From positions 121,727-185,726 of the forward strand of contig CAYUSN010000001.1 in NCBI GenBank assembly GCA_964447415.1: a stretch of 64,000 nucleotides of DNA, written 5' to 3'. The notes under the pieces were generated by a model that had not been told where the DNA came from, did no database searches, and saw only the letters and a program-made list of their open reading frames with translations. This DNA comes from an uncultured Candidatus Saccharibacteria bacterium (GTDB lineage: Bacteria > Patescibacteriota > Minisyncoccia > Phycocordibacterales > EsbW-18). A program made the translations under genes and the position numbers. Shown piece after piece: positions 8,541 through 36,941 of the stretch (the stretch's first letter is position 1; each line of letters opens with the position of its first letter).

Positions 8541-8550
8541 TTCCACCATT

Positions 8551-22142: not shown

Positions 22143-23345
22143 ATGGCAGCAGAATTTGATCGTTCGAAACCGCACGTCAACGTCGGAACCATCGGTCACG
22201 TTGACCACGGTAAGACGACTCTCACCGCAGCTATTCTCCACGTCCTGGACATGAACAAGGACAAGGGATACGGCGCACGCGTCGAAGGTATTGATAACAT
22301 CGACAAGGCACCGGAAGAGAAGGCGCGCGGTATTACTATCTCACTCCACCACTCGGAGTACTGGACGCCGAACCGTCACTACGCGCACATCGATGCGCCG
22401 GGACACGCGGACTACATCAAGAACATGATCACCGGTGCCGCTCAAATGGACGGCGCAGTCTTGGTGGTCGCAGCTCCGGACGGAGCGATGCCGCAGACCC
22501 GAGAGCACATCCTCTTGGCAAAGCAGGTTGGCGTTCCGAAAATGATCGTCTTCCTCAACAAGTGCGACATGGTTGCCGATGCGGAACTTATTGACCTCGT
22601 TGAAGAGGAAGTCCGCGAAATGCTTACGAAATACGGTTTTGACGGCAAGGAGACGCCGTTTGTTCGCGGTTCAGGCCTCAAAGCGCTTGAATCAAAGTCG
22701 GTTGACGACCCGGAGGCCATGAAGGTCCTCGAGCTCGTGCAGACGCTGGACACCTACATCACTGAGCCGGTTCGCGAGACGGACAAGCCGTTTCTCATGC
22801 CGGTTGAAGACATCTTCTCAATCGAAGGACGCGGCACCGTGGTGACCGGCCGTATCGAGCGTGGAGAAATCAAAGTGGGTCAGGACATCGAAGTCGTCGG
22901 ACTTGCGCCGACACAGAAGACGACGGTGACCGGTATCGAAATGTTCAACAAGTCGCTCAATGAGGGAAAGGCGGGCGACAACGCGGGAATTCTTCTCCGC
23001 GGTCTCAAGAAAGAGGATGTGACGCGAGGACAGGTCATTGCGGCTCCGGGTTCGGTAACACCGCACACGGACTTCGAGGCAGAAGTGCTCATTCTCACGA
23101 AAGATGAAGGCGGACGACACACACCGTTCGTCTCCGGCTACAAGCCGCAGTTCTACATCCGCACAACCGACGTTACCGGAGAGGTGACGCTCAATGAGGG
23201 TGTGCAGATGGTGATGCCTGGCGACACCGTTACATTCAAGGTGAAGCTCACGGCGCCGATTGCACTTGAAGCACAACAGCGTTTCGCTATCCGCGAGGGT
23301 GGCAAGACGGTGGGCGCAGGAGTCGTCACAAAGATTGTTGCGTAA
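22143..23345 (+). CDS. tuf: Elongation factor Tu.
   Basis: [18 protein letters not shown] and NKCD GTPase motifs and full-length EF-Tu conservation. Confidence 0.97.
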
Positions 23346-23349
23346 TTAA

Positions 23350-23480
23350 TCCAGCACACAACTTCCCGTCGTTGCTGATATCGCAAGATGTCTGCGAAGC
23401 GGGAAGTTGTCGTATCTGGAAAAAATTGTTACAATCGCTTCGTTCACCGCAACAAAGATAACGGGAAGTTGTGTGCTGGA
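23350..23480. repeat. Hairpin element, copy C. A perfect 19-bp inverted repeat TCCAGCACACAACTTCCCG…CGGGAAGTTGTGTGCTGGA encloses ~95 nt.
   Basis: Starts 4 nt after the tuf stop. The interior carries a degenerate third arm copy (CGGGAAGTTGTCGTATCTGGA) and a TTGTCG-17-TACAAT promoter-like motif facing rpsJ. Confidence 0.65.
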
Positions 23481-23517
23481 CATGCCTCAGTAATTGATAT
23501 ACAGTGTCCCGCGTAGT

Positions 23518-23886
23518 ATGAGTACTTTGAAACCAAAAACACCACGAAAGACGAAGAAAGAAAAAGCGCACGACGAGGCGCCGCACAAGCTGCGCATCCG
23601 CGTTCGTGCCTACGAACACAAACTGCTCGACGAATCGGTGAAGCAGATTATGGATACCGCGACGAAGTACGAAGCGGAAGTCATCGGCCCAATACCGCTT
23701 CCCACCGAGCGTTCAATGTATACGGTCAACCGCGGCGCATTCATCGATAAAAATGCGCGCGAACAGTTTGAAATACGCGTGCACAAACGGGTGCTTGATA
23801 TCACGAACCCGTCGCCGAAAGTGATTGAAGCGCTCACCTCGCTGTCGCTTCCCTCAGGAGTCAATATTGAAGTCAAAATGATGTAA
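23518..23886 (+). CDS. rpsJ: 30S ribosomal protein S10 with a Lys-rich N-terminal extension.
   Basis: KLRIRVRAYEHKLLD…GPIPLPT…EIRVHKRVLDI matches the S10 core. ATG at 23518 preferred over TTG at 23494. Confidence 0.85.
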   Translation: MSTLKPKTPRKTKKEKAHDEAPHKLRIRVRAYEHKLLDESVKQIMDTATKYEAEVIGPIPLPTERSMYTVNRGAFIDKNAREQFEIRVHKRVLDITNPSPKVIEALTSLSLPSGVNIEVKMM

Positions 23887-23887
23887 A

Positions 23888-23920
23888 CAAAAAACCACCC
23901 TACGAGGGGTGGCTTTTTGT
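23888..23920 (+). terminator. Intrinsic terminator (AAAAACCACCC-tacga-GGGGTGGCTTTTTGTT).
   Basis: Hairpin plus T tract directly after rpsJ. Confidence 0.55.
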
Positions 23921-23982
23921 TATGCACACGGAAGAAAAAATCGTTGCCAGGTGATTTTGAGGAAGTGCTATACTTACGGGAT

Positions 23983-26574
23983 ATGAAGTCATCACTATTT
24001 TTTATGCGGTTGGGAGTTATTTCAACCTCCGTAGTATTTTCACTTTTTTGTGTTGGTGTTTCTCATGCACAGGCAGCAACACTGTATTTTAATGGTGTAG
24101 TGAATTCAAATTGGAATACGTTGGGTAACTGGTGGACAGATGTAGGGTTCTCTGCGCCAGCAGGGAGTCTTCCAGGCGTGGGTGATGATGTGATTATTTC
24201 TGCTGACGTACTTTCAAATAGCGGTCCTGCGGCATCTGTAAACAGCATGCTGGTGAGTGGCCCCGCTGTTATAGGAATACCGGTAACCGTTGCAGTAGAT
24301 GCATCGTTTCATGACTCAAGCTCGCTCCGTAACCTTGTTATTGGTGACGCATGTTTTGCAACAACTGCAACAAACGGGCCGCGGTTTTTCGCAGGCCTGG
24401 GCCAGAGCAACAGGTCTTGGAGTAACTTTGCGGCGGCACCAAACGGTGATGTATATGGTGTTACGACTACTAATAATGAAATTTACAAACAAACAGGTGG
24501 TACGGGAGACTTTGTTGATTTGGGTATATTTATCTCCGGTGCATTTAGTATCGGCGTTGCACCAAATGGTAATGTGTATGCGGGCTCATACGGTGGTGAT
24601 ATGTATATGCAGACAGGGGGTGTGGGTAGCTTTGACGCTCTCAATCAAACTTTCAGAAATTGGTTAGGTATCACGGTGGCTCCAAACGGGGATGTATACG
24701 CCACGGGCTTTAACGAGGACATCTACAAACAAACATCTGGCGTGGGTGATTTTGTAGCTCTCGGACAGACTGTTCGTTCTTGGCAAACAATGGCGGCTGC
24801 ACCAAATGGTAATATTTATGCAATTGCAAATGATAATAAAATATACAAACAAACCTCCGGCATGGGAGATTTTGTTGATATAGGCGCACCAGTCAAATCG
24901 TGGTCTGGTATCACTATTGCTGCAAATGGGGACGTATATGCAAGTGTGTTTAACGGTGATATTTACGTACAATCAGGTGGTACTGGTGACTTCAATGCTC
25001 TCGGAGAAACATCGAGGAATTGGAGAGGTATGACAGTTGTCCCGAACGGTAACATTTATACTGGTGTTGTGGGTGGAGATGTATACATGCAGGATAATAG
25101 TGGTACAGTCACGGGGGCTACTACTGTTTGTTCCGCAGCGCTTCCTGTGGTCACGACATCAGCAACAACGTTGGGGATAAGTGGATCCACCTCACTGCTT
25201 TTAGGATCGATTGATGATACTGGTGGGGAAAGTATAAGTACACGGGGTTTTGAATACGGCCTGACAGAAAGTTATGGAGCCGCAACGTCTGAATCAGGGG
25301 TTTTTAACTCTGGCTCCTATAGTTTTTTTGCGGAGAACTTAACATGTGGCAGCGCCTATCATTTTCGAGCATTTGCTACGAATGGGGTAGGAACTGCTTA
25401 CGGTGCGGATGAAACATTTACCACACCAGCCTGTTCATCGGACAGCACTCTTTATGGCATTGATGGTTCGGGTAGTAATTCTGATGACCCACAACTGTAT
25501 GTGCTTGACCCTCTTACGGGTCTGAAGATAGAAACAATTGGACCGGTTGGTTTCTATGTCACCGGAATGGCATTTGACCCTACAACGGGTATTTTGTATG
25601 GAAGTACGGGAGGAAGTGGAATTAATTCAAAAAGTTTGATTACCATAAATACAGAGACAGGAAACGGAACATATCTTGGTGCTATTAAGAATGCGGGAAA
25701 TACATCACTGAATATGCCAGATATCACCTTCCGTTCAGATGGTAGATTATACGGATGGTATGGAAATGATAGTAGTCTCTACACAATCGATTTGACTTCT
25801 TGTGATGGAGTTGATGTCTCCTGTCTCGCAACAAAAGTTGGAGATTCGGGCTTAAGTAGCAACGGTGGCAACGGGCTCGCATTTGATAGTAATGATACCT
25901 TATTTCAATTTGGGAATTATGACGATAGTTATTATCAGATAAATCCAGACACTGGGGAGTCCGTTGCCGAATTCTCATTTACAAATCCTACTGGGGATAG
26001 TCATCCTATAGCGGCAGCCTCTTTCAATCAAAGTGACACTCTCTATCTTTCTCGGTTGTATTACGGAAGCCCAGGAGATTTAGTGATAGTTAACACCGAT
26101 ACGTATGAAATATTTTCTACAGGTGAGAATAATGATGAGATGGCTTACATGGACGCAATTGCGTTTTATATTCCTCCCGACACCACCGCCCCTGTCATCA
26201 CTATTCTCGGCGACAATCCAACCACTATCACCGTTGGTGATACATACACCGACGCAGGAGCAACAGCAGAAGATGATACCGACGGTGATATTACTGGAGA
26301 CATTGTGACAACCAACAACGTCAACGCTGCAGTTGCCGGTACGTACACGGTTGTCTATGATGTATCTGACACGGCACTCAATACTGCATCTGCAGAACGA
26401 ACGGTTATTGTGAATGAAGAAGAATCGAGTGGTGGAGGAAGTAGCAGACGCCGTGACGTTGCCGACGAACCCGTTAATTCTTCACCTACAACTCAAACAC
26501 CACTCGAGCAGCTTCTACTGGAACTCATTGAAGCACTCAAACTGCTCATTGCTGAGTTGATGAAAACACGGTAA
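23983..26574 (+). CDS. Large secreted protein: ~45-aa beta-propeller-type repeats, an FN3-like domain, a second propeller-like region, a bacterial Ig-like (DUF5011-type) domain and the shared C-terminal motif.
   Basis: Signal peptide MKSSLFFMRLGVISTSVVFSLFCVGVSHAQA. Repeats of the form …APNG(D/N)VYA…DIYKQTSG.GDFV.LG…. C-terminal …SSGGGSSRRR…LLELIEALKLLIAELMKTR. Confidence 0.7.
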   Translation: MKSSLFFMRLGVISTSVVFSLFCVGVSHAQAATLYFNGVVNSNWNTLGNWWTDVGFSAPAGSLPGVGDDVIISADVLSNSGPAASVNSMLVSGPAVIGIPVTVAVDASFHDSSSLRNLVIGDACFATTATNGPRFFAGLGQSNRSWSNFAAAPNGDVYGVTTTNNEIYKQTGGTGDFVDLGIFISGAFSIGVAPNGNVYAGSYGGDMYMQTGGVGSFDALNQTFRNWLGITVAPNGDVYATGFNEDIYKQTSGVGDFVALGQTVRSWQTMAAAPNGNIYAIANDNKIYKQTSGMGDFVDIGAPVKSWSGITIAANGDVYASVFNGDIYVQSGGTGDFNALGETSRNWRGMTVVPNGNIYTGVVGGDVYMQDNSGTVTGATTVCSAALPVVTTSATTLGISGSTSLLLGSIDDTGGESISTRGFEYGLTESYGAATSESGVFNSGSYSFFAENLTCGSAYHFRAFATNGVGTAYGADETFTTPACSSDSTLYGIDGSGSNSDDPQLYVLDPLTGLKIETIGPVGFYVTGMAFDPTTGILYGSTGGSGINSKSLITINTETGNGTYLGAIKNAGNTSLNMPDITFRSDGRLYGWYGNDSSLYTIDLTSCDGVDVSCLATKVGDSGLSSNGGNGLAFDSNDTLFQFGNYDDSYYQINPDTGESVAEFSFTNPTGDSHPIAAASFNQSDTLYLSRLYYGSPGDLVIVNTDTYEIFSTGENNDEMAYMDAIAFYIPPDTTAPVITILGDNPTTITVGDTYTDAGATAEDDTDGDITGDIVTTNNVNAAVAGTYTVVYDVSDTALNTASAERTVIVNEEESSGGGSSRRRDVADEPVNSSPTTQTPLEQLLLELIEALKLLIAELMKTR

Positions 26575-26580
26575 CGCAAG

Positions 26581-26612
26581 ACCCGCCCGAAAGGGCGGGT
26601 TTTCATATTTTT
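26581..26612 (+). terminator. Intrinsic terminator (ACCCGCCC-gaaa-GGGCGGGT then TTTCATATTTTT).
   Basis: GC hairpin plus T tract. Confidence 0.55.
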
Positions 26613-26674
26613 GACTCTGTCAAAAGACTAGCGTATAGTCCCCACAGGAACACCGAATACAAAGGGAGGTTAAC

Positions 26675-26923
26675 ATGAGCGAAGAGTTCAACCCGTACGG
26701 GGGAGACGAGTACATGGACGATGTCGCGCTACTCCTGAACAGGCTTGCTGCTCGTTGCACGGGGTGCAAACGTGTCACCAAGAACAAGTTCTTGAAGGAG
26801 GGCAGATGCCCTGTCTGTCGTGGTGCGACGCACGAAGAAGTAGGACGACGTGACCACGGTTCCAATGGCGGTCGGCGTTGCGACACCAACTTCGGTCCCT
26901 GCTCCTGCGGCGCCTGGCACTGA
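26675..26923 (+). CDS. Small zinc-ribbon protein, 82 aa (CxxC…CPVC plus C-terminal CSCG). GC-rich.
   Basis: Strong Shine-Dalgarno AAGGGAGG 6 nt upstream. TTGACT-17-TATAGT promoter at 26611-26639. About 60% GC. Confidence 0.5.
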   Translation: MSEEFNPYGGDEYMDDVALLLNRLAARCTGCKRVTKNKFLKEGRCPVCRGATHEEVGRRDHGSNGGRRCDTNFGPCSCGAWH

Positions 26924-26974
26924 GAAGATGTTCACCGCTTTCCCCCCATGCCCGCGGCTTCTGCCGCGGGCGTC

Positions 26975-27003
26975 TTGCATCTAAAACAACGCTCATGTAT
27001 AGT
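26975..27003 (+). promoter_or_regulatory. Promoter for rplC (TTGCAT-17-TATAGT), followed by a structured ~90-nt leader.
   Basis: Hexamer match. The downstream leader contains a nested inverted repeat GGACACTACCGGCCCTGCCGGACCACAGTGTCC. Confidence 0.4.
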
Positions 27004-27094
27004 GTCTCCCGTTACGCTCCACGTCCCCATAGGGACCACTGGACACTACCGGCCCTGCCGGACCACAGTGTCCGAGCAGGGCGAATCAGTTTCT

Positions 27095-27697
27095 ATGCAG
27101 AAATTTCTCATCGGTACAAAACAGGAAATGACGCAAATCTTCGACGAGAAGGGTGTCGTGCACCCGGGCACCGTCATTTCGCTTTTTCCCGCAGCCGTGA
27201 CACAAATGAAAGCAACCGACACCGACGGGTACACCGCGGTGCAAATCGGTTACGGCGCAAAGAAAGAATCAAAAGTGAACCGCGCGCAGAAAGCGAAAGG
27301 TGCATTTACGGCATTCAAAGAATTTCGCGTTGATGACCCGTCTGCGTTTGCAGTCGGTACGGCAATTGATCCGAATGTGTTTGCAGTCGGTGACACGGTC
27401 ACTGTTGCGGGCGTATCAAAAGCAAAAGGATTTCAGGGTGTGGTGAAGCGTCACGGGTTCCACGGCGGCCGCCGCACGCACGGCCAGAAGCACTCAGAGC
27501 GCGAGCCGGGTTCCATCGGCGCCGGCGGTGTGCAGCGCGTACCCAAAGGACGCCGCATGGCAGGACGCATGGGCGGCGAGCGCATCTCAGTTAAGAATCT
27601 CCGCGTGCTCCAGATTGATCCGTCAGCCAATGTGCTGGTGGTCTCAGGTGCAATCCCGGGACGCCGCGGTACGGTGGTTGAAATCATCGCGCAGTAA
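27095..27697 (+). CDS. rplC: 50S ribosomal protein L3.
   Basis: MQKFLIGTKQEMTQIF… start and L3 conservation. The longer ORF from 26948 is an upstream artefact. Confidence 0.9.
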   Translation: MQKFLIGTKQEMTQIFDEKGVVHPGTVISLFPAAVTQMKATDTDGYTAVQIGYGAKKESKVNRAQKAKGAFTAFKEFRVDDPSAFAVGTAIDPNVFAVGDTVTVAGVSKAKGFQGVVKRHGFHGGRRTHGQKHSEREPGSIGAGGVQRVPKGRRMAGRMGGERISVKNLRVLQIDPSANVLVVSGAIPGRRGTVVEIIAQ

Positions 27698-27705
27698 TTG
27701 TTCTA

Positions 27706-28472
27706 TGGAAAAGAAAATCGTAAAAAAGAAAATCGTGAAGAAGACAGCGGCAAAAACGCGCGCCGTTAAAGCGGAGAAAAAAGCAAAAGCATCCACAGGC
27801 GAGCTTTCAGCGCCGATGTTTACAGTTGCAGGAAAAGAAGCGGGGAAAGTAACGCTTCCCGCAAGTGTCTTCGGTGTCACATGGAACGCGGACTTGGTGC
27901 ACCAGGTTACCTTGGGCATGCAGGCAAACGCACGCGCAGGACTCGGACGCGCACACACGAAAGGACGCGGTGAAGTACGCGGTGGAGGACGCAAGCCGTG
28001 GCGACAGAAGGGAACCGGACGCGCACGACACGGTTCTTCACGCTCACCGATATGGCGCGGCGGAGGAGTGACGCACGGACCGCGCGCGGACAAAGAATAC
28101 GCGGTGCGGATTCCCCGAAAGATGCGCGCGAAGGCGCTCTTCTCGGTGCTCTCACGAAAATTCCGCGACGGTCAGCTTCTCTTTGTGGATGCGATGCCGT
28201 TTGCAACGCCAAAAACAGGCGATGCCAAGAAAGCACTCGACACGCTTGCAAAAGTCGCGGGCTTTGAAAAACTTTCACGAAAGAGCGGGAATGCGGTGCT
28301 GTTTGTGATGCCGAAAAACGACGAGGCGGTGAAGAAGAGCTTCCGCAACATCGGCACGACCGGCGTGGAGGAGGCGCGCAACTTAAACGCGGTAGACGCA
28401 CTCTCATTTACGTATCTCGTTATTGTCGACCCCGATACGTCGGTGAAAGGGTTTGAATCAAAAATGAACTAA
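27706..28472 (+). CDS. rplD: 50S ribosomal protein L4, with a Lys-rich N-terminal extension.
   Basis: L4 core (…KPWRQKGTGRARHGS…). Gene order matches the S10 operon. Confidence 0.9.
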
Positions 28473-28473
28473 T

Positions 28474-28932
28474 ATGCTGTTTCGTAAAAAAGACAACTCA
28501 AGCGGTGCAAAAGCGAAGACCTCGCTGTTTGCAAAGCGCGCCACAAAGGAAGTCGCCGACGTCAAAGAAGAGGAGGCAAAAGAACTTCCGGCGGTCAAAG
28601 GCGGCAAGCACGTGACGGAGAAGAAAAATCTCAAGCAGACCATTGCCGGCGGGAAGGTGAACCCGAACTTTTTGCGCAGCCCGCGTGTGACCGAAAAAGG
28701 AACGATGCTTGCCGCACACAACGTGTACGTATTTGATGTGGCGCGTGAGTCGAACAAAAAACTTATCGCCGCGGCCGTGAAAGACGTCTACAATGTGACG
28801 CCGGTATCGGTGCGCATCGTAAACGTGCCGGCAAAAATGAAAGTATCGCGCCGCGGACTGAAGACAAAAATAGGCGGAGGCAAAAAAGCGTATGTGCAAC
28901 TGAAGAAGGGCGACACCATCGAGCTCGTGTAA
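28474..28932 (+). CDS. rplW: 50S ribosomal protein L23, with an N-terminal extension.
   Basis: L23 core (…RSPRVTEKG…VYVFDVA…) and operon position. Confidence 0.88.
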   Translation: MLFRKKDNSSGAKAKTSLFAKRATKEVADVKEEEAKELPAVKGGKHVTEKKNLKQTIAGGKVNPNFLRSPRVTEKGTMLAAHNVYVFDVARESNKKLIAAAVKDVYNVTPVSVRIVNVPAKMKVSRRGLKTKIGGGKKAYVQLKKGDTIELV

Positions 28933-28942
28933 TACACCGACT

Positions 28943-29794
28943 ATGAAATCATACAAACCAACAAGCAAAGGACGCCGCGGCATGACCGGTATCGAATACC
29001 GGAAACACCTGACGCGCAGCACGCCGCACAAGCCGCTTACCGGCGGATTTAAGCGTTCCTCGGGACGAAACGCGTTCGGTCGGCTCACCACACGCTCCAT
29101 CGGCGGCGGTCACAAACGACGCTTCCGCGACATTGATTTCTCATACGACAAAAAAGATATTCCGGCGCGCGTTGAATCAATTGAATACGATCCGAACCGC
29201 ACCGGTTTTATCGCGCTGTTGGTGTTTTCAGATGGTGCGCGCCGCTACATTCTTGCGCCGCAGTCGATGAAAGTCGGCGCAACATTCCTCGCGTCTGAAA
29301 AAGCACCGCTTATTCCCGGCAACCGTCTTCCGCTTGCAAAAATTCCCGTCGGTACGTTTGTGTACAACATCGAAGCAAAGCAAAACGGCGGTGCAAAGAT
29401 CGCGCGTTCGGCGGGGAACTACGCGGAAGTGGTTGCACACGACGGCGGATACACGCTTATCAAAATGCCGTCAACGGAAATTCGGCGCGCATCAGAAAAA
29501 TCATGGGCATCAATCGGAGAAGTCTCGAATCCTGAAAACAAACTCGTGAATCTCGGTAAGGCCGGTCGCAAGCGCTGGCTCGGCAAGAAGCCGAAAGTCC
29601 GCGGTACGGCGATGAACCCGGTTGACCACCCGCACGGAGGAGGTGAGGGACGTCAGGGACGCGGTCACCGACGCGCACGCACACGTCACGGTAAAAACAC
29701 AGGCAAAGGACACAAGACGCGCCGTCCGAAAAAATACTCAAACTTCCTCATCGTCTCGCGCCGCAAAGTCGGCAAGAAACGAAAGGCAAACTAA
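28943..29794 (+). CDS. rplB: 50S ribosomal protein L2.
   Basis: L2 signatures (…GRN..GRIT.RH.GGGHKR…NPVDHPHGGGEGR…). Confidence 0.95.
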   Translation: MKSYKPTSKGRRGMTGIEYRKHLTRSTPHKPLTGGFKRSSGRNAFGRLTTRSIGGGHKRRFRDIDFSYDKKDIPARVESIEYDPNRTGFIALLVFSDGARRYILAPQSMKVGATFLASEKAPLIPGNRLPLAKIPVGTFVYNIEAKQNGGAKIARSAGNYAEVVAHDGGYTLIKMPSTEIRRASEKSWASIGEVSNPENKLVNLGKAGRKRWLGKKPKVRGTAMNPVDHPHGGGEGRQGRGHRRARTRHGKNTGKGHKTRRPKKYSNFLIVSRRKVGKKRKAN

Positions 29795-29802
29795 TACACA
29801 AC

Positions 29803-29839
29803 ACACGCCCCGGCAAAAGCCGGGGCGTGTTTCTTTTTT
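29803..29839 (+). terminator. Intrinsic terminator after rplB (ACACGCCCCGG-caaaag-CCGGGGCGTGT then TTCTTTTTT).
   Basis: 11-bp GC stem plus T tract. Unusual inside an S10 operon. Confidence 0.6.
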
Positions 29840-29906
29840 ATATAAAGCAGAAAGGGCGCCGTACGTTCACGACGCCCTCAATGGGATTTCCGAGACCGGG
29901 GTGGTG

Positions 29907-30095
29907 TTAGATGGCCGCGATCGTGATCGAAGCGATCGCCAGCGTCAGCCAGACGCCGCGGTACCGGCCTTCCTTCGGCCGGACGTTGAGCGTGGGGAAG
30001 ACCCCCTGCTTCACCTCCGCGACGACGAACTCTCCGTTCGGGTCCCACTTGACCCGATAGACCCCCGGACGTACTGCATTGTACTCGGAGCGCAT
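29907..30095 (-). CDS. Small GC-rich membrane-anchored protein, 62 aa, on the strand opposite the ribosomal operon.
   Basis: GGAGGG Shine-Dalgarno 7 nt upstream of ATG. C-terminal TM helix ([16 protein letters not shown]). About 62% GC. The longer 86-aa ORF reaches 30167. Confidence 0.4.
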
Positions 30096-30245
30096 CCCGT
30101 TACCCTCCAGGCTCTCTTTTCCACGGAATGTGGAGAAGAGTACTTCTACAGCTGACTTTACATACAATTTTCATAAAGCGCAAGACCACTGTGTATTACC
30201 TGTGGAAAGACGGCTTCTTTGAGGGCGTTTTTGGCACCGCAACAT

Positions 30246-30274
30246 TTGACCGTGGGGTATGCTTCTGGTACTAT
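30246..30274 (+). promoter_or_regulatory. Promoter for rpsS (TTGACC-17-TACTAT). A 10-bp perfect palindrome GTCGAAAAAC-ttg-GTTTTTCGAC lies downstream at 30315-30337.
   Basis: Hexamer match. The palindrome sits in the 5' UTR. Confidence 0.4.
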
Positions 30275-30352
30275 GCCTCGAAGGCCGGTGGGCCATTTTT
30301 TTGGCGCTTAGCGCCGTCGAAAAACTTGTTTTTCGACCATTCAAAAGAATCA

Positions 30353-30697
30353 ATGACACGATCACTCAAAAAAGGACCATATCTCAACGTAAAGCTCATG
30401 CAGAAGGTGGGCAAGCAGAAACCGGGAGGACCGGCTATTAAAACGTGGGCGCGCGCATCCGTTATTGCCCCGGAAATGGTCGGCTATACATTTGCAGTTC
30501 ACAACGGCAAAGTTTTTAACGATGTATTTGTAACCGAGGAAATGGTCGGACACCGCCTCGGTGAATTTTCGCCCACGAAGACATTCCGCAAGCACGGAGG
30601 TCAGATGCAGAAGGCGCTTGATACCGCAAAGAAGGAAGCGGAAATTTCCGCAGCACACGCGGCGAAGGCAGCAGCAGAAGGTGCCGTAAAGAAATAA
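30353..30697 (+). CDS. rpsS: 30S ribosomal protein S19, with an Ala/Lys-rich C-terminal extension.
   Basis: [12 protein letters not shown]… start and S19 core. The longer ORF from 30128 is an upstream artefact. Confidence 0.9.
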
Positions 30698-30698
30698 T

Positions 30699-31115
30699 AT
30701 GCGCGTGTATCTCAAAAATTACCGTCAGTCGCCCCGCAAAGTTCGCCTCGTCGCGAACCTTATCCGCGGCAAAAGCGTTCCCGCAGCGCTTACACTGCTT
30801 CGTGTGACACCGAAGCGGGCAACGGTTCAGCTTGAAAAATCACTCCGTTCCGCGCTTGCGAACGCAAAGCAGAAGGGGATGACCGACGCAGACACGCTTA
30901 CCGTTAAAGAAATCCGCGTGGATAAGGGTGTGACCCTGCATCGATTTTTGCCCCGCGCACAGGGACGCGCGACCCGTTTTGACAAGCACTCAAGCAACAT
31001 CATTATGGTGCTCGGAGAATCAAAGAAAGCGGACGTGAAGGCGGAAAAGACCGAAACCGAGAAGGCGGCAAAAAAAACAGCACCGAAAACAAAAGCTAAA
31101 AAAGCGACAACGTAA
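30699..31115 (+). CDS. rplV: 50S ribosomal protein L22, with a Lys-rich C-terminal extension.
   Basis: L22 core and operon position. Confidence 0.9.
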   Translation: MRVYLKNYRQSPRKVRLVANLIRGKSVPAALTLLRVTPKRATVQLEKSLRSALANAKQKGMTDADTLTVKEIRVDKGVTLHRFLPRAQGRATRFDKHSSNIIMVLGESKKADVKAEKTETEKAAKKTAPKTKAKKATT

Positions 31116-31120
31116 TTTAT

Positions 31121-31777
31121 ATGACACACCGAGTTCATCCATTTGCACATCGTCTGGGAATTCTTCGTGACTGGCAGTCACGGTGGTTTGCGCGTGGTGC
31201 TGATTATCGCGCAAACCTTAAGACGGACGTGCTCATCCGAAGAAAAATCGCCAAGCTCACCGAAAAAATGTACGTCGGCGGCATTGAAATGGAACGCCGC
31301 GGCGCACAGCTTCGCATCATCATCAAGACGTCCCGTCCCGGTCTTATCATCGGACGCTCGGGTGAGGGTATTGCAAAGCTCAAAAAAGAAATAGACTCCT
31401 TTGCCGCAAAGCAGGGACTGGAGGGTGTCGGCGCCATCAAACTTGAAATTGAGGAGATAAAGTCGCCGGAATCAAACGCCGCAATCGTAGCAAGTATGGC
31501 AAAAGAGGGTATCGAGAAGCGCACACCGTTTCGCCGCGTGCTCAAACAGACTGTCGACAAGGTGATGGCGAACAAAGATGTGCAGGGCGTCCGTATTCAC
31601 CTCTCAGGTCGCCTCGGCGGGGCCGACATGGCGCGCCGTGAGCAGATTAAGAAAGGACGCATTCCGTTGCAGACGTTCCGCGCCGACATTGATTACGCAC
31701 ACGACGAAGCGCACATCCCGCAGGGACAAATCGGCATCCGCGTCTGGATTTACCGCGGTGATATCTTTAAAAAATAA
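31121..31777 (+). CDS. rpsC: 30S ribosomal protein S3.
   Basis: KH domain and S3 C-terminal domain (…GIRVWIYRGDIF). Confidence 0.92.
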   Translation: MTHRVHPFAHRLGILRDWQSRWFARGADYRANLKTDVLIRRKIAKLTEKMYVGGIEMERRGAQLRIIIKTSRPGLIIGRSGEGIAKLKKEIDSFAAKQGLEGVGAIKLEIEEIKSPESNAAIVASMAKEGIEKRTPFRRVLKQTVDKVMANKDVQGVRIHLSGRLGGADMARREQIKKGRIPLQTFRADIDYAHDEAHIPQGQIGIRVWIYRGDIFKK

Positions 31778-31900
31778 GCACGAATATCGAAGCGCGAAAT
31801 TCGAAACAAGCACGAAACATGAAGGCTCAAATGTTCAAAACTTCAAAAAGTAAGATTTCAGATTTGTTTCGGATTTCGATATTCGGATTTCGAATTTAAA
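31778..31900. repeat. Palindromic intergenic repeat, copy 2, between rpsC and rplP.
   Basis: GCACGAATATCGAAGCGCGAAATTCGAAACAAGCACGAAACATGAA…TTTGTTTCGGATTTCGATATTCGGATTTCGAATTT. Confidence 0.7.
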
Positions 31901-31905
31901 AAAAT

Positions 31906-32322
31906 ATGTTGTTTCCGAAGAAAGTAAAATACCGAAAGTGGCAGACGAAGCGCGTGAACCCGAAGAAAGTCGGGGTTGCTTCGCGCGGCACGACGATTGC
32001 GTTCGGTTCCTTCGGACTGAAAGCAGTGTCTGCACATCGCGTGACGTCAAATCAGATTGAAGCGGGACGACGTGTCATTCGCCGCGCGCTCGGCAAGAGC
32101 GGCAACCTCTGGACCCGTATTTTCCCCGACCGACCGTACACGGCAAAGCCGGCGGAAGTGGGCATGGGTAAGGGGAAAGGAGACCCGAAAGGGTTTGTGG
32201 TTGAAGTACTTCCCGGACAGATGCTGTTTGAAGTAGACGGCGTTCCTGAGGCGCTTGCGCGTGAGGTGCTTCGTAAAGGAGGCGCGAAAATGCCGTTGAA
32301 GACGAAAATTATTGCGCGATAA
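31906..32322 (+). CDS. rplP: 50S ribosomal protein L16.
   Basis: L16 conservation (MLFPKKVKYRK…). Confidence 0.92.
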   Translation: MLFPKKVKYRKWQTKRVNPKKVGVASRGTTIAFGSFGLKAVSAHRVTSNQIEAGRRVIRRALGKSGNLWTRIFPDRPYTAKPAEVGMGKGKGDPKGFVVEVLPGQMLFEVDGVPEALAREVLRKGGAKMPLKTKIIAR

Positions 32323-32351
32323 GGTATTCTTCTGTAGTATCACCAGACTCT

Positions 32352-32546
32352 ATGGCGAAAAAAACCGACATCACGAATATGACCGACAAAGATCTGCTGG
32401 CGCTCGTTTCCGAAAAGCGGGAGGCGCTCCGACAGGTTCGGTTTGCAACATCGTCATCACGCGGACGTGACGTAAAAAAAATGCGGGAGAGCAAGAAGGG
32501 AATCGCACGCGCACTGACTGAATTGTCACGCCGCAGTGCACAGTAA
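32352..32546 (+). CDS. rpmC: 50S ribosomal protein L29.
   Basis: 64-aa helical protein of the L29 family, in the expected position. Confidence 0.85.
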   Translation: MAKKTDITNMTDKDLLALVSEKREALRQVRFATSSSRGRDVKKMRESKKGIARALTELSRRSAQ

Positions 32547-32550
32547 TCAT

Positions 32551-32790
32551 ATGGATACACAAGCAAAAAAACCGAAAACGCTGAAGGGTACCGTCGTGTC
32601 AGACAAGATGAAAGACACGGTGGTTGTCCGTGTGGAGCGCTATATTAAGCACCCGAAGTACGGCAAATTCATGAAACGGCAGAAACGATACAAAGCGCAT
32701 GATGCAGGCAACACGAAGCGCATCGGAGAGGTGGTTACGATTATTGAAACCGCGCCGTATTCAAAGGACAAGCATTTTAAAGTGATGTAA
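32551..32790 (+). CDS. rpsQ: 30S ribosomal protein S17.
   Basis: S17 core (…[20 protein letters not shown]…). ATG at 32551 preferred over the overlapping GTG at 32536. Confidence 0.85.
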
Positions 32791-32794
32791 GTAT

Positions 32795-33166
32795 ATGATT
32801 CAGCCTCGTTCCATCGTGCAAATTGCAGACAACTCCGGAGCAAAAGTCGGACGTGTTTTCAAAGTGCTCGGCGGCAGCAAGCGCCGATATGCGGAAATCG
32901 GCGACAAGGTGGTTATTTCCATTCAGATTGCAGAACCGCGCAAGGCGACGAAGAAAAAAGACGTCGTGCACGCGGTTGTTGTACGCCAGACGAAAGCGTT
33001 TCGCCGAAAAGACGGTTCGTATGTTCGTTTTGATGAAAACGCGGTCGTGCTCGTGGACAAGGTGAAACCGGAACCGAAAGCAAACCGCATCTTCGGACCC
33101 GTTCCGCGCGAACTTTCAGATAAAGGTTTTCAGAAAATTGTATCGCTTGCACCCGAGGTTGTATAA
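32795..33166 (+). CDS. rplN: 50S ribosomal protein L14.
   Basis: [17 protein letters not shown]… L14 signature. Confidence 0.93.
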
Positions 33167-33170
33167 CGTT

Positions 33171-33386
33171 ATGCACGTCAAAAAAGGAGACAAAATCAAA
33201 GTGATCGCAGGAAAAGACAAAGGTACCTCAGGTACGGTGGTGCGCGCGTTTCCGAAAAAGAACATGGTGCTTATTGAGGGCGTCAACAGGGTCAAACGGC
33301 ACCAGCGTGCCAAAAAGGGCAGCGCAAAAGGACAGATTCTTGAAAAGGCGATGCCGATTCACGTATCTAACGTACAGAAAGCATAA
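33171..33386 (+). CDS. rplX: 50S ribosomal protein L24.
   Basis: [18 protein letters not shown]… KOW motif. The ORF track's 33138 start is an upstream artefact. Confidence 0.88.
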
Positions 33387-33391
33387 TTTGT

Positions 33392-33946
33392 ATGATTCCT
33401 GTTAAAGAAAAACAGAAAAAAGCGTTTGCAGACCTCAAGGACGTGTTGCACATCAAAAACACGATGGCGCTTCCGCATGTCGAAAAAATCGTCATCTCCG
33501 TCGGTATCGGTTCGGTGAAGGACAAAAACAAAATCGAAGTGATTCAGGACCGTTTGGGTAAAATTACCGGTCAGAAATCAGTCGGACGTGTCGCGAAAAA
33601 ATCCATCGCGTCATTTAAGCTCCGCGAAGGACAGACCATCGGCTACCAGATTACGCTCCGCGGTCAGCGCATGTACGATTTTCTTGATCGTCTGCTCAAC
33701 ATCGCGCTTCCCCGCACGCGTGACTTCCGCGGTATCGACCGAAAATCAGTTGACCCGATGGGCAATCTTACCATCGGTATCCGCGAACACCTTATTTTCC
33801 CTGAAACGGCGGATGAAGAAGCACGCGACGTGTTCGGTCTTGCCATCACCATCGTTACCTCGGCCCGCAACAAAAAAGACGCCGAAACCTACCTTGAATA
33901 TATCGGTGTGCCGTTCAAAAAAGAGACGGAAAAGGCCAAAAAATAA
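33392..33946 (+). CDS. rplE: 50S ribosomal protein L5.
   Basis: L5 conservation throughout. Confidence 0.92.
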   Translation: MIPVKEKQKKAFADLKDVLHIKNTMALPHVEKIVISVGIGSVKDKNKIEVIQDRLGKITGQKSVGRVAKKSIASFKLREGQTIGYQITLRGQRMYDFLDRLLNIALPRTRDFRGIDRKSVDPMGNLTIGIREHLIFPETADEEARDVFGLAITIVTSARNKKDAETYLEYIGVPFKKETEKAKK

Positions 33947-33955
33947 AGAAAAGCC

Positions 33956-33988
33956 CCGCCAAAAAGAAGGCGGGTTTTTTCTTGCCCT
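33956..33988 (+). terminator. Intrinsic terminator after rplE (AGCCCCGCC-aaaaagaa-GGCGGGTTTTTTC).
   Basis: Hairpin plus T6. Unusual between rplE and rpsN. Confidence 0.5.
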
Positions 33989-34150
33989 TTTTTGGCGGTT
34001 CTGGTAGTATACGAGGGCTTTACTTTTGTGGAGCTAGTCCTTCCAGAGCCAATAGGCGCAGGGGGGAGACCATCGCCTCGTTATCTGCCAGCCGGTCACA
34101 CGACCCATGGGCACATCCAAGAGGCAGCATTTTTTTTGGAAATAAAGCAT

Positions 34151-34420
34151 ATGGCACGAAAAAGCAATCTTGCACGGGACAAAAAACGAGCGGTTATGCG
34201 TACCCGCACGGCGGCAAAACGCGCCGCGCTCAAGGAGACGCACGACTACGAAGCGCTCCAGGGCCTGAAGAAAAACGCGTCGCCGGTTCGTACAAAGAAC
34301 CGCTGTTTTAAGTGTGGTCGTCCGCGCGGCTACATGCGCGAATTCGGTCTGTGCCGCATCTGTTTCCGCGAACTCGCCAACAAAGGAATGATTCCGGGCG
34401 TTAAAAAAGCATCATGGTAA
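34151..34420 (+). CDS. rpsN: 30S ribosomal protein S14, type Z (zinc-binding), with an N-terminal extension.
   Basis: CFKCGRPRG…CRIC zinc-ribbon motif typical of S14 type Z. The ORF track's 33992 start is an upstream artefact. Confidence 0.85.
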
Positions 34421-34803
34421 CCGACCCTATCGCAAATTTCATAATTGCTCTCCAGAATGCCGCGCGCGCAGGCAAAGAAACCGTGCTGGTACACCGTTCA
34501 GCGCTTAAAGAGGCGGTTGCTGCGACACTTAAAGGTGCAGGGTACATTTCAGGTTTTTCAATCAAGGGAAAAAACGACAACAAAATTGAAGCAACACTCG
34601 CGTTTGCCGACGGTGTTGCAAAGATTCACGGTGTAAAGCGCGTGTCACGTCCGGGTAAGCGCGTGTACTGCGGCGCATCTGATATTTATCCGGTACGCAA
34701 CGGCTACGGACACCTGGTGCTGTCAACGCCTGCAGGTGTGATTACCGGACAGGATGCACGCAAACGAAAAGTCGGCGGAGAGGTACTGTTTGAAATCTGG
34801 TAA
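34414..34803 (+). CDS. rpsH: 30S ribosomal protein S8.
   Basis: S8 conservation ([16 protein letters not shown]…). Overlaps rpsN by 7 nt. Confidence 0.92.
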
Positions 34804-34805
34804 CA

Positions 34806-34936
34806 AATGCAAGCACGAATGTCGAAGTACGAAATTCGAAACAAGCACGAAATATGAAAATCCAAATATCAAAAAAAGAAAAATACGAAAATCCAAATTT
34901 GTTTCGGATTTCGATATTCGAATTTCGAATTTAATT
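34806..34936. repeat. Palindromic intergenic repeat, copy 3, between rpsH and rplF.
   Basis: AAGCACGAATGTCGAAGTACGAAATTCGAAACAAGCACGAAATATGAAAA…TTTGTTTCGGATTTCGATATTCGAATTTCGAATTTAA. Confidence 0.7.
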
Positions 34937-34941
34937 CAGAT

Positions 34942-35475
34942 ATGTCACGTATCGGCCGACAAAAAATCACCGTTCCCGAGAAGACAACCGTTACCGTAAA
35001 CGACGGCATGGTAACTGTTGTCGGACCGAAAGGGACACTCTCACGCGCATTTAAGAACGACATCACCATCAGTATCGCAGACGGTGTGGTGACGCTTGTC
35101 CCGAAAAAAGAATCAAAGGAGGTCTCCGCACTCTGGGGGACGTACAGCTCGCACATCCAAAACATGATTAACGGCGTCAATACAGGATACGAAAAGAAGC
35201 TCGTGCTCGACGGAGTTGGTTTCCGTGCGGAAGTAAAAGGAAAAGAGCTCGCCATGCAGCTCGGTTTCTCGCATCCGGTGGTAGTACCGATTCCGGAGGG
35301 CGTCTCAGTAACGGCGGAAAAAAACCTTTTGACGTTTCAGGGAATCGACAAGGAGCTGGTGACGCAGTTTGCAGCGAAAATCAGAAGCTTGAAAAAACCG
35401 GAACCGTACAAAGGCAAAGGGTTTCATTACGACGACGAGGTTATCCGCCGCAAGGAAGGTAAACGTGCCGCATAA
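34942..35475 (+). CDS. rplF: 50S ribosomal protein L6.
   Basis: MSRIGRQKITVP… and L6 two-domain conservation. Confidence 0.92.
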   Translation: MSRIGRQKITVPEKTTVTVNDGMVTVVGPKGTLSRAFKNDITISIADGVVTLVPKKESKEVSALWGTYSSHIQNMINGVNTGYEKKLVLDGVGFRAEVKGKELAMQLGFSHPVVVPIPEGVSVTAEKNLLTFQGIDKELVTQFAAKIRSLKKPEPYKGKGFHYDDEVIRRKEGKRAA

Positions 35476-35478
35476 CGT

Positions 35479-35823
35479 ATGGCAATCAAAAGCACAAAAG
35501 AAAAACGAGTTCGCCGGCAGGTGCGCATCCGCGCCAAGATTTCGGGCACAAGCGAGCGCCCGCGGCTTGCGGTGTTTCGCTCAAACCGTGCTATTTCCGT
35601 ACAGCTTATCGACGATGTGAAGGGACGGACACTGTTGTCGGGAACGACGCGCGGCATGAAGGGCGCACAGAAAGAAAACGCGAAAAAGCTCGGACAACAG
35701 ATTGCCGCCGATGCGAAGGAGAAAAAAATTACGAAAGTGGTGTTTGACCGCGGCGGGTTTTCATATACAGGCAACATCGCGGTGTTGGCGGAGGGTGCGC
35801 GGGAAGGAGGCCTGCAATTTTAA
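35479..35823 (+). CDS. rplR: 50S ribosomal protein L18.
   Basis: L18 core (…RPRLAVFRSNR.I..QLIDD…). Confidence 0.9.
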   Translation: MAIKSTKEKRVRRQVRIRAKISGTSERPRLAVFRSNRAISVQLIDDVKGRTLLSGTTRGMKGAQKENAKKLGQQIAADAKEKKITKVVFDRGGFSYTGNIAVLAEGAREGGLQF

Positions 35824-35832
35824 TGTATACCT

Positions 35833-36486
35833 ATGTCAGATGACGCAACGATAAAGGAAAACGATGTGGAGATAAAAGAGGCTGAGGTTGAAGCTGTGGT
35901 TGAAACCGCAGATGAGGCCGCTGCTCCTGAGACAAAGGCGCCGGCCGCTCCCGAAGAGCGTGGAAGAGGCGGACGGTTCGAAAAGAATCCCCGTCGCCGT
36001 CCTCGCGCCCGCACGGAGCGTGTGAAGCCCGAGTTTGACCAGCGTATTATCGGTATCCGCCGTGTGACGCGTGTTGTCGCGGGAGGACGCCGATTCTCGT
36101 TCTCTGTCTGTGTCGTTGCGGGAAACCGTCGCGGACAAGTTGGTGTGGGCACCGGCAAAGCAGGTGACACAGCGCTTGCCGTTGAAAAGGCGTATCGAAG
36201 CGCGCTCAAAAATAAAATTGATATTTCAAAGACGGACACGAACTCCATTCCGCACGAGGTACAGGCAAAATACTCAAGCGGCGTGGTCAAGCTCTACCCG
36301 GCTCCGGGACGCGGTTTGATTGCCGGAGGCGCGGTGCGTGACGTACTTGAACTTGCAGGTATGCAGGGTGTGGGCGCAAAAATTCTTTCACGCAGCCACA
36401 ACAAGCTCAACAACGCATTTGCCGCAATTATGGCGCTCAAACAGCTCACACGGGAGATTAAGAAGCATGCGCCGCGTAAGGAATAA
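35833..36486 (+). CDS. rpsE: 30S ribosomal protein S5, with an acidic N-terminal extension.
   Basis: S5 dsRBD and C-terminal domain (…RVTRVVAGGRRFSFSV…). Followed directly by rplO, so no L30 gene. Confidence 0.92.
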   Translation: MSDDATIKENDVEIKEAEVEAVVETADEAAAPETKAPAAPEERGRGGRFEKNPRRRPRARTERVKPEFDQRIIGIRRVTRVVAGGRRFSFSVCVVAGNRRGQVGVGTGKAGDTALAVEKAYRSALKNKIDISKTDTNSIPHEVQAKYSSGVVKLYPAPGRGLIAGGAVRDVLELAGMQGVGAKILSRSHNKLNNAFAAIMALKQLTREIKKHAPRKE

Positions 36487-36491
36487 ATTCT

Positions 36492-36941
36492 ATGCAGCTC
36501 CACGAACTCAAAAGAAAAACACCGAATAAGAAATCGCGACGTGTCGGACGCGGCAGTAAGCGCGGTAAAACGTCGGGACGCGGTACAAAGGGTCAGAAAG
36601 CACGCGCAGGACACCGAATTCGTCCGGAGTTCCGCGACATGATCAAAAAGATTCCGAAACGGCGCGGCTACGGCAAACATCGCGCATCAGGCGTCATCGG
36701 CTCGCGTGTGAGTGCAATCGTCGTTGACCTCAAAACAATCGATAAGACGTTCGAGTCAGGAGACTCGGTAACACTTGCGGCACTCGCCGAAAAAAAAGTC
36801 ATTCGCATGCGCGGCGGCAAAATGCCGGCTGTAAAAATACTCGGTACAGGACCAGTTTCAAAGAAACTCACCGTAACCGGTGTTCCGATCTCAGCGTCCG
36901 CGAAGGCGGCAATCGAGAAGGCGGGTGGGTCAGTTGCATAA
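36492..36941 (+). CDS. rplO: 50S ribosomal protein L15.
   Basis: L15 Gly/Arg/Lys-rich N-terminus and core. Confidence 0.9.
   Translation: MQLHELKRKTPNKKSRRVGRGSKRGKTSGRGTKGQKARAGHRIRPEFRDMIKKIPKRRGYGKHRASGVIGSRVSAIVVDLKTIDKTFESGDSVTLAALAEKKVIRMRGGKMPAVKILGTGPVSKKLTVTGVPISASAKAAIEKAGGSVA

Follow-up and report, generated by a model that had tools for sequence, protein, structure and literature searches.

Putative transcriptional seams with exchangeable cargo in the S10-spc ribosomal protein cluster of a Patescibacteriota genome

The S10-spc cluster is the most conserved bacterial gene array and serves as a backbone of phylogenomics and of contig-level binning checks in the Candidate Phyla Radiation (CPR). 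We analysed this cluster in a 64,000-nucleotide stretch of DNA from an uncultured Candidatus Saccharibacteria bacterium (positions 121,727 to 185,726 of contig CAYUSN010000001.1, assembly GCA_964447415.1), the whole of which is hereafter called the window. The cluster is probably a chain of shorter units, namely (tuf-)rpsJ, rplC-rplD-rplW-rplB, rpsS to rplE and rpsN to rplO(-secY-adk-map). The three break points between them, rpsJ|rplC, rplB|rpsS and rplE|rpsN (hereafter the seams), are likely to be old and common to the lineage, with cargo genes recurrently inserted into them and swapped. An earlier note on this DNA, made from its sequence, had described the conserved operons as fragmenting at insertion points; the partitions and the presence of foreign genes stood up to our analysis, whereas a recent, genome-specific fragmentation did not, as the break points turned out to be lineage-wide.

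Division of the cluster into shorter units

Pfam scans of the long plus-strand open reading frames (ORFs) gave the identities of the ribosomal protein (r-protein) genes and the order tuf, rpsJ, rplC, rplD, rplW, rplB, rpsS, rplV, rpsC, rplP, rpmC, rpsQ, rplN, rplX, rplE, rpsN, rpsH, rplF, rplR, rpsE, rplO, secY, adk and map, which is the conserved bacterial order, intact except for the missing rpmD. Two of the spacers, rpsJ|rplC (3.2 kb) and rplB|rpsS (0.56 kb), have other genes inside. A single S10 unit of the E. coli type was not found: a scan of the region for terminator and promoter consensus predicted terminators after rpsJ, after the surface protein gene surf that lies in the first spacer and after rplB, and a promoter ahead of rpsS; promoters ahead of rplC and rpsN were picked by eye (Table 1). 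These signals agree with the earlier note, which had given rpsJ its own terminator, rplC its own promoter and structured leader, and rpsS its own promoter, and had placed a terminator followed by a minus-strand 62-aa gene with a Shine-Dalgarno (SD) sequence behind rplB. A terminator between rplE and rpsN, likewise proposed there, was recovered as well. Within the region, terminator-like hairpins are strongest at the seams. No terminator belongs to tuf, which is probably co-transcribed with rpsJ. The E. coli S10|spc border is unbroken in the window, with a gap of 4 nt between rpsQ and rplN.

The partitioning of the cluster is physical, and the sequence signals support that it is transcriptional as well. 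We infer that the predicted promoters and terminators function, so that each unit would end in an intrinsic terminator and would have a sigma-70-type promoter of its own, at which transcription restarts and behind which a conserved leader RNA lies. Because transcription would already stop and re-initiate there, the seams would be the only places where cassettes can enter without polar damage, and they could act as hot spots of insertion and replacement with a rapid turnover of cargo.

The three seams in related genomes

The window proteins were mapped on 160 related loci and every junction was measured; the CPR set comprised about 120 loci, and the absence of the next gene despite more than 3 kb of sequence was counted as an outright break. 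The prevalence of large gaps and of breaks is given in Table 2 together with the results of a motif scan that took in 150 nt 5' of every gene and recorded a promoter-like sequence (TTGnnn-16/18-TAnnnT) and a hairpin followed by a U-run. The combination of a promoter with a hairpin and U-run was enriched upstream of rpsS, where it occurred in 29% of the CPR loci.

Table 2. Interruptions and upstream signals at the seams and elsewhere in the cluster.
Junction or gene set	Gaps of at least 400 bp (CPR loci)	Outright breaks	Largest gap	Non-CPR maximum gap	Promoter-like sequence upstream of second gene	Hairpin + U-run upstream of second gene
rpsJ|rplC	25%	no extra breaks	5.1 kb	242 bp	40%	42%
rplB|rpsS	34%	4 loci	5.3 kb	133 bp	46%	32%
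rplE|rpsN	17%	2 loci	2.5 kb	104 bp	45%	27%
All remaining junctions	0-6%
17 other genes					0-20%	0-11%

One Paceibacterota metagenome-assembled genome (MAG), L004, is nearly cargo-free, with gaps of 294, 196 and ~300 bp at the seams, yet it has the same promoters and leaders. Because this cargo-poor genome keeps them, the seams appear to be a feature of the lineage and not recent damage. The type of cargo differs among relatives and includes DgkA, PemK/MazF toxins, type IV pilin-like proteins, PorV-like barrels, secreted proteins and small zinc ribbons. The DgkA gene, for a prokaryotic diacylglycerol kinase (DAGK_prokar, E 6e-33), lies on the same strand in the rplB|rpsS spacer of seven Nomurabacteria-like loci (L013, L025, L029, L030, L032, L034 and L053), and is a stably retained passenger of this one seam. 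Seams that hold up to 5 kb of cargo, or at which the cluster breaks outright, affect how markers of the "syntenic ribosomal block" are extracted and interpreted. They also show at which sites minimal genomes put up with accessory genes (surface, toxin and phage-derived) next to very highly expressed ones and trade them.

Cargo between rpsJ and rplC

The first gene of this spacer, surf, encodes a secreted modular Ig-like surface protein with a signal peptide. The earlier note had called it a giant surface protein inserted here; the insertion was borne out, and at 863 aa the product is not giant. Its G+C content at third codon positions (GC3) is 0.35, against 0.48-0.67 in host genes. No ortholog was found, just partial domain matches to modular surface proteins of Patescibacteria. 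The gene is absent from the nearest relative L188 and from L001, L004 and L002, and is present in the independent assemblies L196-L199. In a strain variant of 98.5% identity, surf shows 1 difference in 2592 nt (99.96%) and rplD-rplB differ by 2-6%; the segment is thus either young or was swept recently. An extended -10 element (TGcTATACT) ends at 23974, 8 nt before the start codon, and there is no SD, which suggests that the surf mRNA is leaderless.

The second gene, znr, encodes an 82-aa protein with a double zinc site (CxxC…CxxC and C-x6-CxC-x3-H). It was rightly noted as an inserted zinc-ribbon gene, and its G+C richness is only mild (0.59 versus ~0.52-0.55); the truly deviant genes are surf and the 62-aa ORF of the rplB|rpsS spacer (GC3 0.86). 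Two homologs, P0003 and P0004 (67% and 55% identical), lie on phage-like contigs with dense small genes, which also carry HNH, UvrD-like helicase, AAA_23 and DUF5675 genes. Moreover, the C-terminal motif GxNGGxRCDTxxGPCSCGAWH was found in 22 IMG/VR viral contigs. These matches point to a phage affinity of znr. Strain L197 has two substitutions in it, both synonymous. Searches of PHROGs and NCBIfam with znr and the 62-aa ORF gave nothing meaningful, the products of znr and surf, looked up by exact sequence, were not on record, and tblastn with surf, znr and the 62-aa ORF revealed no homologs in 162 related loci even at E<1.

L188, which like L194 lacks both surf and znr, shows what the spacer may have looked like before. 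Its rpsJ is followed directly by the old terminator, then by a minus-strand gene for a 177-aa secreted protein (also present in L001 and L002), and then by the rplC promoter and leader, which are 98% identical to those of the window. Judged by its match to the L188 sequence (Table 1), the terminator now standing after surf is the ancestral rpsJ terminator. Compared with L188, the DNA from the conserved terminator to the conserved promoter has been replaced cleanly, and the junctions show no duplications. We propose that a cassette consisting of terminator, promoter and surface protein gene entered the stretch that separates the rpsJ stop codon from the ancestral terminator of rpsJ, and that the ancestral minus-strand gene was swapped for the small double-zinc gene of phage affinity. 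The rplB|rpsS spacer would have kept an older, fast-evolving gene for a 62-aa tail-anchored protein, divergent from rpsS.

In L001, a 73-aa zinc-ribbon gene (9581-9802) occupies the position of znr, and behind it a GC hairpin homologous to that of the window stands directly 5' of the rplC -35 element. A relationship between this gene and znr was rejected (hhalign probability 8%), and the same slot is thus filled by non-homologous small zinc-ribbon genes in two lineages.

The antisense gene between rplB and rpsS

The 62-aa ORF antisense to the operon is preceded by the SD sequence GGAGGG and is predicted to encode about 45 aa of soluble domain and, behind it, a C-terminal membrane anchor. A word-indexed protein search found just the ORF itself. 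Taken alone, it would wrongly imply an ORFan; an exhaustive HMMER search revealed the homolog P0005, which also has 62 aa and is 54% identical over the full length. P0005 lies between rplB and rpsS of L188/L194 at the same place, on the same strand and with an equivalent SD, and occurs on 18 contigs in all. Between the two genes the synonymous divergence (dS) is 0.91 and the nonsynonymous divergence (dN) 0.37, i.e. dN/dS is 0.41, against 0.02-0.09 in the flanking r-protein genes. The G+C contents at the three codon positions (0.62/0.44/0.86) show coding periodicity with a foreign, high-GC flavour. By these measures the ORF is a real gene, fast-evolving and still conserved, and the conservation on which the earlier note had made it depend was found. 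Multi-stretch matches to beta-propeller proteins with "GVYSVAWSPDG" repeats were judged compositional and discarded. L001 and L002 have mutually homologous antisense small ORFs at the same spot; their homology to the window gene was rejected, as BLASTP showed no similarity.

It could be argued that a formerly intact S10/spc operon was broken by new insertions in this genome alone. Such recent decay would account for surf and znr being compositionally foreign and missing from the closest relative, for the near invariance of surf between strains that are otherwise 2-6% apart, and for the phage-borne relatives of znr. However, the breaks, promoters and leaders also exist in cargo-free relatives (L004) and in many Parcubacteria lineages, the small gene of rplB|rpsS is shared with another species at a dS of about 0.9, and the spacer that now holds surf was terminator-bounded beforehand and is occupied in L188, L001 and L002. 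Synteny with relatives revealed shared, ancient break points and no identical insertions, in keeping with recent cargo. We consider decay an unlikely explanation, and for the break points themselves it is largely refuted.

Leader RNAs

Each seam promoter is followed by a leader. The rplC leader contains a hairpin, P1, with a covarying stem (UCCC/GGGA, UUCC/GGAA, UUUUUGGCUC/GAGCCAAAAA) framed by the invariant sequences CCAYG and ACCWCUGG, a second helix GGACAC/GUGUCC, and a third, GC-rich one (GCCCUGC/GCAGGGC) that covaries and has a different sequence in nearly every genome. The covariance model (CM) R1, built from five sequences, gave 15 matches in 1.2 Mb, all immediately 5' of rplC. In the alignment 93.5% of cells were paired and 11 of the 18 pairs showed double changes; none of 500 shuffles was as good, and slid controls were at most 55% paired. 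The three helices could form a pseudoknot or belong to mutually exclusive folds, which is equally possible; the latter is allowed by the lengths of the loops and by an inner hairpin that can form instead.

In the rpsN leader a long hairpin is built from an outer stem that is invariant (GCCUC/GAGGC, 34075-34125), an inner stem UGCC/GGCA, a conserved internal loop and an apical stem with compensatory covariation; this leader is shared with L188, L001 and L004. Conserved structure with covariation in a 5' untranslated region was found for the rplC leader, and less strongly for that of rpsN. Short GC hairpins with a U-run right after the promoter form the same design before rpsS and rpsN in many relatives. 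At the gathering score Rfam 15 had no match in the whole window, rRNA included, and at E<=10 the three leader regions and the repeated hairpin element described below gave just terminator-like or chance matches.

By analogy with the L4 and S8 circuits of E. coli, we infer that these RNAs are feedback or attenuation elements, responding to L4 or another product of the unit in the case of rplC and to S8 or S14 in that of rpsN. For autoregulation by r-proteins in CPR bacteria, the conserved leaders provide concrete candidates for the first time. A more far-reaching picture, which we entertain only tentatively, is that all three leaders are CPR-specific r-protein-sensing attenuators that replace the L4 and S8 circuits, that the repeated heptad hairpin is a new intercistronic element, and that the cluster is modular and separately regulated, with the seams as landing pads.

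Limits of the interpretation and read-through

Several points weigh against a chain of units with exchangeable cargo. The promoters and terminators are consensus predictions from sequence, partial read-through across unit boundaries may occur, and the hairpins with U-runs 3' of promoters could be attenuators, 5' stabilisers or leaders for SD-less translation. In the survey, CPR and non-CPR labels were taken from record titles, gaps were derived from tblastn coordinates and absorb lineage-specific N- and C-terminal extensions, and the percentages are prevalences, not numbers of events, as the loci are phylogenetically non-independent. The covariation of the rplC leader was assessed on a CM alignment fitted to two of the three helices, and the rpsN leader rests on four distinct sequences. 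In addition, no integrase, insertion sequence or target-site duplication was found at the insertion junctions, and 23887-27094 and 29795-30352 contain no integrase or transposase gene or domain.

If such points are taken further, the cluster could still be one operon, in which the hairpins are leaky attenuators or stabilising elements, the promoters occur by chance and the cargo is a co-transcribed passenger. Hairpins with U-runs also stand directly 3' of predicted promoters and need not stop all transcription, and terminator-like matches in the region scan were just about 1.5-fold above shuffles. However, divergent genomes share near-consensus -35 and -10 elements 17 nt apart at the seams, whereas such pairs are rare elsewhere, and the four boundary terminators are the region's strongest hairpins, with 6-12 bp, mostly G-C. 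Moreover, the genes in two of the gaps are convergent or antisense and end in terminators of their own (the 62-aa ORF, and the 177-aa gene of L188), so that read-through would mean antisense collisions. A single operon thus seems to us even less probable than recent decay.

Relatives and independent assemblies

An L3 search over one genome per GTDB species gave "Candidatus Campbellbacteria bacterium AMX-MBFR-44" (L001) as the best match (88%), followed by L004 (81%), the MAG L002 (64%) and many Parcubacteria-group MAGs at 50-59%. The lower matches include Vogel-, Nomura-, Taylor-, Yonath- and Kaiserbacteria MAGs, in agreement with a Parcubacteria/Paceibacteria affiliation, and a metagenome scan by L3 had a best match of just 68%. 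The nearest relative, L188/L194, was found via the homolog of the 62-aa ORF; its L3 is 94% and its r-proteins are 88-100% identical.

Exact-protein look-ups led to close relatives and independent Logan contigs. L081 and L196/L199 match the window with 100% identity over 3.4-7 kb, and L082, L197 and L198 with 98-98.6%; L081 and L196-L199 come from the runs SRR14787577/8 and SRR27710303-5. Logan contigs from at least five sequencing runs jointly cover rpsJ-surf-znr-rplC-rplD-rplW-rplB and rplW-rplB-small ORF-rpsS-rplV-rpsC. A chimeric contig, conceivable as the source is a MAG and the cargo is deviant in composition, is virtually excluded, because these independent assemblies repeat both arrangements at 98.5-100% identity.

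The divergence between strains is a mosaic. When window 22835-31890 was compared with L082, L197 and L198, the divergence was 0-0.8% from tuf to rplC (with surf and znr), around the small ORF (29851-30210) and in rpsC, and in rplD, rplW, rplB, rpsS, rplV and the rpsS promoter region it was 2-6%. This pattern indicates recent recombination or sweeps of cluster segments.

Repeated hairpins and other features of the window

Two further spacers, rpsC|rplP and rpsH|rplF, had been missed in the earlier note and are filled by a repeated hairpin of about 125 nt. It consists of inverted arrays of 7-nt units, with a 5' arm (nnnCGAA)x4 and a 3' arm UUGUUUCGGAUUUCGAUAUUCGGAUUUCGAAUUUAA, and folds with a dG of -27 to -31 kcal/mol (z-scores -3.1 to -4.4). 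A third copy lies between rplJ and rplL, and a partial one at 21182-21207. Elsewhere the element was found in L084 (315-445), L007 (10594-10669), L011 (1530-1644 and 10986-11129) and the rpsH|rplF spacer of L188, and in other Parcubacteria it stands before rplC, rplD or rplO. In every case the element stops 8-15 nt short of a start codon without SD, and its 3' arm is nearly invariant among genomes with L3 56-68% identical. No Rfam or family match was found for it. With three copies in one window, the statistics do not establish that the element favours r-protein spacers, as it seems to. The hairpin could be a mobile repeat resembling a miniature inverted-repeat transposable element (MITE), or an intercistronic element of translation or processing. 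CGAA/UUCG heptads also reach into the 3' ends of coding sequences, namely that of L22 in L188 (~3823, inside rplV) and that of L3 in L007 (10594-10640), and may there encode lineage-specific C-terminal tails.

A different hairpin occupies the tuf|rpsJ spacer (172 nt). A second copy of its 3' arm, CGGGAAGUUGU, gives alternative pairings, and the minimum free energy (MFE) is -62 kcal/mol. It stands in place of another, conserved hairpin that relatives have here, framed by ACGUGUA…CGACGUG and with a covarying inner stem (L188rc 940-1005, L004 1420-1490, L001 7295-7400). The rpsJ product has an N-terminal extension of about 22 aa and is 100% identical to S10 of L188.

S14 had been assigned to type Z in the earlier note, which its 89 aa do not support (type Z, ~61 aa). 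It aligns with residues 1-89 to positions 1-101 of the long-form NCBIfam model NF006477 (100.3 bits); its residues 40-89 match the type-Z model NF005974 (83 bits), and the zinc knuckle CxxC…CxxC is present as CFKC…CRIC. The N-terminal start is conserved in L001, L004 and L002. By these alignments S14 is a long-form protein with a type-Z-like zinc knuckle.

Since the gap between rpsE (end 36486) and rplO (start 36492) is just 5 nt, the window has no rpmD (L30) there, as had been noted. The median rpsE|rplO gap is 66 nt in CPR loci versus 303 nt in non-CPR loci. L30 is missing from all CPR (PMC5220378), and its absence is likewise given as a CPR trait in PMC9297842.

Further claims of the earlier note that proved correct concern rplJ and rplL: upstream of rplJ (12271) lie a GIY-YIG gene and a gene for a 1089-aa surface protein instead of rplKA, and rplL (12943-13356) is followed by a gene for a 667-aa secreted repeat protein instead of rpoB. 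CPR ribosomes often lack L1 and L9 as well as L30. The stand-alone GIY-YIG nuclease gene (84 aa, 12016-12270) abuts the rplJ start codon, and rplJ-rplL are embedded among large secreted repeat proteins of 733, 1089, 667, 675 and 700 aa (6339-11796 and 13473-19522), which belong to PKD or InlB-B-repeat-like families or to none. Upstream of tuf, rpsL, rpsG and fusA are not present. Directly after map (39639-45037) follow genes for an 861-aa protein without a family match and for a 928-aa HerA/TraG-like ATPase, whose match to phrog_5156 takes in almost the entire length (E 2e-76); infA-rpmJ-rpsM-rpsK-rpsD-rpoA-rplQ, expected after map, are not there. This module may be mobile or phage-derived, separating the spc and alpha units. 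A tRNA scan found none.

Table 1. Positions of genes, predicted signals and RNA elements in the window.
Feature	Coordinates	Strand	Basis	Remarks
Heptad-repeat hairpin, rplJ|rplL spacer	12810..12932	+
tuf (EF-Tu)	22143..23345	+	Pfam	no terminator-like site 23345-23518
Long hairpin, tuf|rpsJ spacer	23351..23480	+	MFE fold	18-20 bp outer stem
rpsJ (S10)	23518..23886	+	Pfam, NCBIfam	122 aa
Intrinsic terminator after rpsJ	23895..23912	+	consensus scan	not in L188; part of inserted surf cassette
surf	23983..26574	+	Pfam	863 aa
Terminator after surf	26578..26603	+	consensus scan	97% identical to terminator directly 3' of rpsJ in L188
Promoter-like sequence for znr	26611..26639	+	consensus scan	TTGACT-17-TATAGT
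znr	26675..26923	+	SD AAGGGAGG	82 aa
GC-rich hairpin just 5' of rplC promoter	26950..26971	+	GCCCGCGGC-TTCT-GCCGCGGGC	common to L001
rplC promoter	26975..27003	+	picked by eye	TTGCAT-17-TATAGT; kept in L188, L001, L004, L002, L084, L008
rplC leader, conserved and structured	27017..27089	+	CM R1, covariation
rplC	27095..27697	+	Pfam; gene calls on identical contigs
rplD	27705..28472	+	Pfam; gene calls on identical contigs
rplW	28474..28932	+	Pfam; gene calls on identical contigs
rplB	28943..29794	+	Pfam; gene calls on identical contigs
Bidirectional terminator after rplB	29803..29830	.	consensus scan	12 bp
Terminator of 62-aa gene	29852..29879	-	consensus scan
62-aa protein gene	29907..30095	-	SD GGAGGG	C-terminal hydrophobic tail
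rpsS promoter	30246..30274	+	consensus scan	TTGACC-17-TACTAT, TG-extended -10; kept in L188, L004
rpsS leader	30283..30352	+		5' hairpin GGCC-GGUG-GGCC, U7, two further hairpins; no SD
rpsS, rplV, rpsC	30353..31777	+	Pfam
Heptad-repeat hairpin, rpsC|rplP spacer	31778..31899	+		fills spacer 31778..31905, which is 15 nt in L188, L001
rplP, rpmC, rpsQ, rplN, rplX, rplE	31906..33946	+	Pfam
Terminator after rplE	33955..33974	.	consensus scan
rpsN promoter	33982..34010	+	sequence, picked by eye	TTGCCC-17-TAGTAT; kept in L188, L001, L004
rpsN leader	34017..34150	+		long hairpin, then U8 at 34130-34137
rpsN (S14)	34151..34420	+	Pfam, NCBIfam	89 aa
rpsH	34414..34803	+	Pfam
Heptad-repeat hairpin, rpsH|rplF spacer	34811..34934	+
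rplF, rplR, rpsE, rplO	34942..36941	+	Pfam

Comparison with known systems

In E. coli an L4-responsive S10 leader precedes rpsJ, and the spc operon is under S8 feedback. The window has the same gene order through rpsQ and on through rplNXE-rpsNH-rplFR-rpsE-rplO-secY, structured 5' leaders stand ahead of multi-gene r-protein units in both, and the hairpin and U-run elements of the window could attenuate transcription as in the L4 control. However, the boundaries of the window are rpsJ|rplC, rplB|rpsS and rplE|rpsN, whereas E. coli splits at rpsQ|rplN; the structured leader of the window stands before rplC and not before rpsJ, there is no Rfam match to an r-protein leader, and rpmD is absent. 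Detachment of rpsJ from rplC is itself familiar, as rpsJ is linked to tuf and the str genes in cyanobacteria, plastids and archaea. The window resembles this arrangement in that rpsJ follows tuf, and differs from it in that tuf has no rpsL-rpsG-fusA upstream and rpsJ|rplC is a site of variable cargo.

The distribution of r-protein leaders and operons has been reviewed in PMC3616713. The closest published counterpart is a candidate L4 leader of Archaeoglobi upstream of rplC-rplD-rplW-rplB (Eckert & Weinberg 2020, PMC7247131), and the rplC leader of the window is similar to it as a structured RNA immediately 5' of a unit that begins with rplC and includes rplD, with L4 as the presumed ligand by analogy. 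It has no detectable match in sequence or structure to this archaeal element, Rfam 15 giving none, and the motif CCAYG-stem-ACCWCUGG with GC-rich helices was found only in Parcubacteria-type loci. Our literature searches returned no description of the rplB|rpsS and rplE|rpsN seams, of cargo turnover or of these leaders.

The heptad hairpin is reminiscent of repetitive extragenic palindromic sequences (REP), bacterial interspersed mosaic elements (BIME) and MITEs in being multi-copy and intergenic, in following gene orientation and in occupying different junctions in different genomes. Its inverted 7-nt arrays, its near-invariant 3' arm and its fixed place before an SD-less start are unlike them.

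The closest parallel to the seams themselves is the "invasion-separation" of concatenated translation operons, known from Gammaproteobacteria and Bacilli at canonical operon borders (Brandis 2021, PMC8046335; Brandis et al. 2019, PMC6735719). In line with it, the window has rplJL apart from rpoB, tuf apart from rpsL-rpsG-fusA, and map apart from the alpha operon. Unlike in those models, its spacers lie inside what are single operons there, insertion has struck these three spacers again and again throughout a CPR class, and cargo is replaced and not just added. The pattern of the window fits the invasion-separation model and extends it to non-canonical borders.

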